64,000 nt of DNA from Candidatus Moanibacter sp. (GTDB lineage: Bacteria; Verrucomicrobiota; Verrucomicrobiia; Opitutales; UBA2987): assembly GCA_965226025.1 (NCBI GenBank), contig CBDDCD010000001.1:970104-1034103 (forward strand). Reading direction: 5' to 3'. Both the position numbers and the translations under genes were made by a program. Below the pieces are notes generated by a model. It saw nothing but the letters and a program-made list of their open reading frames with translations. It made no database searches and was not told where the DNA came from. Below, piece by piece: positions 50,836-50,856 of the stretch. Numbering within the stretch: position 1 is the stretch's first letter; every line of letters starts with the position of its first letter.

Positions 50836-50850
50836 AAAACTGAGGTGGTC

Positions 50851-50856
50851 CGTCAA
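50851..50856 (-). promoter_or_regulatory. -35 half (TTGACG) of the IS110 circle-junction promoter
   Basis: Joining the right end to the left end through the CT core places it exactly 17 nt from TATAGT. Confidence 0.75.

Follow-up and report, generated by a model that had tools for sequence, protein, structure and literature searches.

The window, by which we mean the whole stretch of DNA analysed (64,000 nucleotides), carries on its minus strand an insertion element of the IS110 group, and positions 50856..50836 on that strand are the terminal 21 nt of its right end (RE). The best explanation overall, which we hold to be very probable, is that this RE terminus contributes one half of a sigma-70-type promoter, predicted to be active, that would be assembled only when the element is circular. 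The hexamer TTGACG is found in the RE, 15 nt from the core, and the hexamer TATAGT is found in the left end (LE), where it adjoins the core. In the chromosome these two halves are separated by ~2.3 kb, and each of them faces non-promoter DNA. The features at the two junctions are as follows.

50836..53111, minus strand: IS110-group element, flanking CT cores excluded; 2276 bp here, with ends common to 22 further copies
50851..50856, minus strand: putative -35 hexamer TTGACG, in the RE; the same in all copies and in the Moanibacter-MAG relative
50836..50850, minus strand: RE tail GACCACCTCAGTTTT, 15 of the 17 spacer nt; includes the left-donor stretch CCTCAGTTT matched by the guide LDG
50834..50835, minus strand: CT core, right junction
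53112..53113, minus strand: CT core, left junction
53106..53111, minus strand: putative -10 hexamer TATAGT, the first 6 bases of the LE; also the right-donor half-site read by the guide RDG
50776..50835, plus strand: 69-bp REP-like palindrome, comprising the intact arm CTAGGAGTCTGTCGGAC (50776-50792), the loop, and, of the arm that the IS splits, the inner part
53112-53121: outer part of the IS-split palindrome arm

Ends of the element, core, and target

The plus strand at 50827-50860 reads GTCCGACAGAAAACTGAGGTGGTCCGTCAAGGGA; on the minus strand, the same segment is TCCC-TTGACG-GACCACCTCAGTTTT-CT-GTCGGAC. At the left junction, the minus strand was read as CTAGGAGC (53121..53114), CT (53113..53112), and TATAGT (53111..53106). 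The genome (8.27 Mb, in 3 contigs) has 23 copies of the element, and both ends are intact in 22 of them. When the copies were compared, it was observed that all of these 22 had the LE TATAGTAGCTCC and the RE ...CCTCAGTTTT / CCACCTCAGTTTT, and that the flanks begin to diverge directly outside the target motif. Intact copies of the element measure 1712 bp, plus one core. CT was present on both sides of each copy (22/22), while empty sites had a single CT. Terminal inverted repeats are absent, the LE TATAGTAGCTCC and the RE CCACCTCAGTTTT being no inverted copies of each other.

Across the copies, the left flank was CTAGGAG followed by T (n = 19), G (n = 2), or C (n = 1). The right flank was GTCGGAC, with GTCTGTA and GTTGGAC as variants. 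Since such flanks are similar but not identical, they represent a preferred target rather than sequence of the element. The empty target, CTAGGAGT-CT-GTCGGAC (CTAGGAGTCTGTCGGAC), was searched for genome-wide; it occurred 168 times exactly and 843 times with at most two mismatches (~0.001 expected). This target is one arm of a 69-bp palindromic REP-like repeat with the layout CTAGGAGTCTGTCGGAC - 35 nt - GTCCGACAGACTCCTAG, of which the genome holds 181 complete copies. All 22 insertions were in AGGAG arms; AGGAA arms are about equally common. The confinement of the insertions to AGGAG arms fits the sequence of LTG, one of the four guides of the bridge RNA described below.

The ends are fixed without any promoter argument, by the copies, the empty targets, a 79%-identical relative, and the four bridge-RNA guides. 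A preliminary description of this DNA had inferred these ends and the CT core; both were borne out by the 22 copies, by the empty targets (168 exact, 843 with up to two mismatches), and by the relative. We are nearly certain of the element ends and of the junction sequence as read here.

The whole genome was also searched for another IS110 family that could serve for a within-host comparison, and none was found. It may be noted that, beside the 23 IS110 copies, this genome contains about 20 copies of IS200-like elements and REP-like palindromes by the hundred. Its size (8.27 Mb, with 1.5% contamination) is three-fold that of two sampled genomes of the same genus (2.6-2.7 Mb).

Bridge RNA, guides, and recombinase

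The non-coding left end, upstream of the ATG of the recombinase, is 349 nt long. Its RNA fold gave a z of -5.75 compared with shuffled sequence. A consensus fold made with the 79%-identical relative contained a 5′ stem-loop, a 10-bp closing stem, and two internal-loop hairpins (TBL, DBL); 4 of its pairs are compensatory. When positions 50500-53400 were scanned against Rfam, no family was matched. The RNA, its guides, and the gene that follows are located as given here.

53099, minus strand: predicted transcription start, an A 7 nt past the -10, where the pairing of the 5′ stem-loop begins; placed by the spacing rule and the consensus fold
52809..53100, minus strand: bridge RNA, with the 5′ stem-loop (53100-53029), the closing stem (52974-52965 with 52818-52809), and the target-binding and donor-binding loops
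52940..52948, minus strand: LTG UUAGGAGGC, same sense as the left target CTAGGAG
52916..52924, minus strand: RTG UCCGACAGA, reverse complement of T-CT-GTCGGA
52865..52875, minus strand: LDG CCUCAGUUUGU, same sense as the RE end CCTCAGTTT
52837..52846, minus strand: RDG ACUAUAAGAA, reverse complement of TT-CT-TATAGT
51640..52762, minus strand: recombinase gene, codons 1 to ~374 of 436, with DEDD/RuvC-like and Tnp domains (from Pfam and an intact copy)
51076..51639, plus strand: nested IS200-like element, 564 bp, with a Y1 tnpA at 51130-51582; interrupts the recombinase gene
50888..51075, minus strand: stranded 3′ end of the recombinase gene, its final 62 codons and the stop

The strand orientations of the guides obey the rules known from IS621 (PMC11208160), and the core is reached only partly by LTG and LDG. 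The complement of RDG, TTCTTATAGT, spans RE, core, and LE, and its full sequence exists only at an RE-CT-LE junction.

The relative mentioned above comes from a MAG labelled Candidatus Moanabacter sp., which belongs to another genus but shares its GTDB family with this genome (Ca. Moanibacter is placed by NCBI in Verrucomicrobiota, Opitutia). The MAG has 10 copies of the element, with a recombinase that is 79% identical and with the same ends. The target of its element is [C/T]TAGGAAT-CT-GTCGGAC, and comparison of the two species revealed covariation between guide and target. LTG, which is UUAGGAGGC here, reads UUAGGAAUC in the relative, and the targets of the latter are CTAGGAAT; hence, GG in the guide is replaced by AU (AGGAGG/AGGAAU), and GAGT in the target by GAAT (AGGAGT/AGGAAT). 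The 9 normal insertion sites of the relative are AGGAAT-CT, compared with AGGAGT-CT here.

The recombinase reading frame starts at 52762 on the minus strand, enters the IS200-like insert, and stops at 51599. Two Pfam domains were matched above their cut-offs, PF01548 at the N-terminus (IS110 DEDD, 63 bits) and PF02371 at the C-terminus (IS116/IS110/IS902 Tnp, 38 bits). The NCBIfam model ‘IS110 family RNA-guided transposase’ was matched from end to end with a score below its cut-off (120.8 vs 140 bits), which implies that the recombinase is a divergent member of the family. The IS621 transposase (8wt6) was the sole solved structure that the recombinase matched. On alignment to IS621, the acidic motif SDPVDA was paired with KTDTVDA, and ISSGQ (the SSG serine motif) with YESGS.

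Compared with the intact copies, the IS200-like insertion lies between element positions 1472 and 1473. The C-terminal part lost in this way aligns to IS621 residues ~285-322, inside the solved fold, and the truncated recombinase is probably inactive. The ends and the bridge RNA of the window copy are identical to the consensus, and the 436/440-aa frame is kept in 18 copies. Consequently, with its own recombinase truncated, the window copy could circularise only with recombinase supplied in trans from those 18 copies.

Elsewhere in the genome, the nested IS200-like element has about 11 identical copies and about 8 copies of 82% identity. One copy of the 82% variant is inserted 18 nt inside the LE of another IS110 copy (G000:C1:723658-724226), between the -10 and the bridge RNA. 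Two IS110 copies (G000:C3:245250-247950 and G000:C2:915550-918350) are interrupted at LE positions 29 and 75 by an element of ~2.4 kb. This has two overlapping reading frames, one of 491 aa without a match in Pfam and one of 261 aa with a weak match to Transposase_29 (below cut-off), and is probably another, poorly described IS. An ugpA-like ABC permease gene (53126-54005) begins 11 bp from the left junction, and its reading frame is broken near 53200, at a T7 run; the gene is a pseudogene, or else the break is a homopolymer sequencing error.

Predicted promoter at the circle junction

When the RE is joined to the LE through one CT, the sequence TTGACG - 17 nt (GACCACCTCAGTTTTCT) - TATAGT is obtained. 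Each hexamer matches its consensus at 5 of 6 positions (10/12 in total), and the spacing is optimal. Sites of at least 10/12 with a spacing of 16-18 nt have a genome rate of 2.1e-5 per position and strand. In a 502-nt construct made of RE (120 nt), CT, and LE (380 nt), the sole promoter-like site was the 10/12 site across the core. The chance of a site of at least 10/12 straddling a given junction in the right orientation is ~6e-4.

The linear arrangement was scanned likewise. Neither the linear LE with 150 nt of flank nor the linear RE with 150 nt of flank contained a promoter-like site, and a region scan of 50700-53300 detected none on the minus strand. A site of at least 9/12 on the strand of the element was not found in the linear left end. 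The number of promoter-like sites in the region scan was about equal to that for shuffled sequence. In none of the 22 integrated copies did a flank hexamer located 16-18 nt upstream from TATAGT match TTGACA at more than 4 of 6 positions (no more than 3 in 18 copies), and the -35 of the integrated RE faces GTCGGA, with 0/6 matches to the -10 consensus. These two observations imply that the predicted promoter exists only at the RE-CT-LE junction. The 24-mer of this junction, with up to two mismatches allowed, was absent from the whole genome, which therefore contains no tandem dimer or assembled circle; the exact 24-mer was also absent from JGI metagenome contigs.

Boxes of the TTGAC type serve as -35 elements in the host. 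The interval 41-70 nt upstream of its tRNA genes contains TTGAC 10 times, compared with 3.1 expected (3.2-fold enrichment, P = 0.0015), and TTGACG-17-AATAAT, before a tRNA-Gln gene, is an example. The -10 preference of the host looks looser. No promoter site of at least 9/12 was seen within 600 nt upstream of the only 16S gene, and across the genome the motif was only 1.2-1.3 times as frequent as a reversed-motif control.

We envisage that the element would be excised as a circle (RE-CT-LE), which would bring both halves together with a 17-nt spacer. The joined halves would form a near-consensus promoter of the sigma-70 type, and transcription from it would begin ~7 nt past the -10, at the base of the bridge RNA's 5′ stem. 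The same 7-nt offset was seen in the left ends of the relatives. The transcript would then traverse the bridge RNA, with its target- and donor-binding loops, into the recombinase gene. No U-tract terminator was found between the bridge RNA and the ATG, making read-through into the gene plausible. Both components would be boosted only in the transposition intermediate. From its sequence, we predict with considerable confidence that the junction is a working promoter.

As regards the preliminary description, its string of TTGACG, 17 nt including the core, and TATAGT was confirmed by reading the strands (10/12). Its claim that the promoter arises only on circularisation agrees with the empty linear scans and with the poor -35 matches (no more than 4/6) in the flanks of the 22 copies. 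It had also aimed the promoter at the bridge RNA and the recombinase. This orientation holds for both, with the predicted start at the base of the 5′ stem. The recombinase of the window copy is truncated, however, so that a promoter at its junction would drive, beside the bridge RNA, only a recombinase that lacks its C-terminal part.

Conservation, known systems, and alternative explanations

The MAG element keeps TTGACG-17-TATAGT, and the start of its LE is identical. In the last 33 nt of the RE (AAAAAATCCCTTGACGGAC[C/T]ACCTCAGTTTT), it shows one difference from the element studied here, compared with about eight in the preceding 22 nt. Among the sampled genomes of the order (201) and the phylum (401), the Moanibacter MAG excepted, only single-copy relatives were found, at 35-45% identity. 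A metagenome scan provided a distant set of 80 relatives at 39-46% identity, from which 55 unique junctions could be used; the relatives at 62-71% identity (P0004-P0007) lie outside this set. The distant ends were anchored on CTCAG (RE), TATAG (LE), and an equal core dinucleotide, and no empty sites were used. Five of 56 junctions look mis-anchored or shifted by 1 base; one of them was dropped, and four were kept among the 55 as non-matches. The counts obtained were as follows.

TTGAC[A/G/T] at the exact -35 place, the hexamer not being an anchor: 40/55
TTGC[A/G]G at the -35 place: 8/55
TATAGT at the -10 place: 39/55
At least 10/12 at exactly 17 nt: 39/55
TATAG present (itself an anchor), final T lost: 16/55

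TTG was the strongest part of the -35 profile, while the 6 nt after the -35 carried only 0.2-0.8 bits across the 55 junctions, and in many relatives an A-rich tract was present upstream of the -35. A conserved hexamer, variable next 6 nt, and an A-rich tract are the footprint that a -35 box would be expected to leave. The spacer motif CTCAG, itself an anchor, is likewise conserved. The conservation of CTCAG, and of TATAG without its final T, indicates that part of the conservation must reflect donor recognition; and since TATAGT is also the RDG half-site, its conservation is not creditable to promoter function alone. The comparison shows the putative -35/17 nt/-10 junction layout to be a conserved trait of the long-recombinase clade.

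It could be argued from the same data that the two hexamers are recombination signals, TATAG being the right-donor half-site and TTGAC a recombinase contact, and that their likeness to a promoter is incidental. Indeed, RDG ACUAUAAGAA pairs with TTCTTATAGT; TATAG is invariant in the anchored relatives, with the promoter-critical sixth T lost in 16/55; and conservation extends to CTCAG, a motif without a promoter role. However, TTGAC lies outside the LDG-paired CCTCAGTTT, and the 6 nt next to it are poorly conserved. A profile strongest at TTG, with an exact 17-nt spacing and, in many relatives, an A-rich tract upstream, is that of a -35 box, and the same -35 word is enriched upstream of the tRNA genes of the host. 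Moreover, in IS621, bridge-RNA function in cis was abolished once the RE -35 had been removed (the donor being cut to 22 bp), and the RNA-seq starts are at the junction promoter (PMC11208160). The promoter and recombination roles are also compatible with each other. We therefore consider it unlikely that the hexamers are recombination signals and nothing else. The retention of TATAG throughout the clade, including relatives without the promoter-critical T, suggests that recombination may be the primary constraint on this hexamer, with transcription as an added layer.

Junction promoters are known from several related elements. For IS621 and five orthologues, RNA-seq starts were located at a sigma-70-like promoter that is rebuilt across the RE-LE circle junction (PMC11208160), and the junction promoter of IS621 has been re-confirmed (PMC13626964). 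ISPpu10 of Pseudomonas putida KT2440 possesses a native promoter of low strength and, in the minicircle, a strong hybrid promoter (Pjunc), as measured (PMC12288879). For ISEc11 and IS492 (IS1111/IS110 family), it is related in papers citing the work on them that circle formation makes a Pjunc from both ends (PMC11208160, PMC13626964). The circles of ISPpu9, also of P. putida, form no hybrid promoter, and the native promoter is used (PMC12288879); a Pjunc is therefore not universal in the IS110 family. Hence, the earlier statement that this mechanism is established for IS110 elements is upheld by these three papers, ISPpu9 excepted.

The element studied here shares with IS621 of E. coli, the archetype of the IS110 group with a bridge RNA encoded in the LE, a recombinase with DEDD/RuvC-like and Tnp domains, the CT core, and a REP-type target; the bridge RNA upstream of the gene, the strand orientation of LTG/RTG and LDG/RDG, and a -35 in the RE with a -10 in the LE are shared as well. 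It differs in the size of the recombinase (436 aa here, 326-328 aa in IS621), of which phmmer aligned only the C-terminal domain (E = 6e-5). The left end is also different, ~350 nt with an extra-long 5′ stem here compared with 191 nt and a 177-nt RNA in IS621, and the present host appears to belong to Verrucomicrobiota (Opitutia). ISPpu10 is likewise an IS110-family element with a hybrid promoter, but host and sequence differ, and Pjunc was measured there whereas it is predicted here. With ISEc11 and IS492, as known from the citing papers, the circle promoter made from two ends is shared, whereas IS1111-group elements have their bridge RNA downstream of the gene. ISPpu9 has in common membership of the IS110 family, insertion into REP sequences, and minicircles, but its junction carries no hybrid promoter. 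The present case matches the known junction-promoter mechanism feature for feature, and is a divergent member, not a new kind.

ISPpu9 is also the model for a second alternative, namely that expression comes mainly from integrated copies, through read-through or a weak internal promoter, and that the junction adds little. Apart from the native promoter of ISPpu9, which works without a hybrid one (PMC12288879), this is favored by IS621, where low-level transcription without the junction promoter is enough for excision (PMC13626964). Against it, no site of at least 9/12 was present in the linear LE of the element studied here, the flank -35 hexamers reached no more than 4/6, and a strong junction promoter, as predicted, that is conserved across the clade argues for selection. 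Low linear expression would in any case be needed for the first excision, and so complements the circle-junction promoter. We regard expression mainly from integrated copies as quite improbable. A chance resemblance with no biological meaning is scarcely credible, since, although consensus matches alone are weak evidence and the region scan resembled shuffled sequence, the probability of a junction-straddling 10/12 site is ~6e-4 and the arrangement recurs in 39-40 of the 55 distant relatives.

For the promoter confined to the circle, the overlap with the donor sites should be considered. LDG matches a left-donor stretch that has the -35 box 6 nt upstream of it, and the -10 is the RDG half-site; hence, RNA polymerase and the recombinase-bridge-RNA complex would compete for the same ~30 bp of the circle. 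We tentatively raise the idea, speculative as it is, that the junction promoter could be a self-limiting switch. The promoter would fire until the complex accumulates; the complex would then take the donor site, shut the promoter, and integrate the circle. A non-exhaustive literature search found no statement of this idea.

The element, a cleanly delimited IS110-group bridge-recombinase system, seems to be so far undescribed. With a 69-bp palindromic repeat as its target, it has multiplied to 23 copies in a Verrucomicrobiota-type genome, and its ends, core, target, four guides, and predicted junction promoter have all been defined there. Comparison of the relatives indicates in addition that the putative -10 box doubles as a donor half-site. 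These data should be of use for annotating such elements and for picking natural bridge systems to test, while the understanding of the mechanism is unchanged by them.

One copy in the MAG (L027:2150-2175, 3860-3890) has flanks that are donor-like, not target-like (ACCTCAGTTTA-CT ... CT-TATGGGGAGCT), and its left flank matches LDG (CUCAGUUUAC) better than the normal RE does. This copy may be an insertion into a donor-like site, or a relic of a junction or a tandem. Among the distant relatives, some sub-lineages (L059, L061, L063, L079, L107, L108, and others) have TTGC[A/G]G and TATAG[G/A], some with AT or CC cores, and hold the 17-nt spacing through compensating 1-nt shifts around CTCAG.
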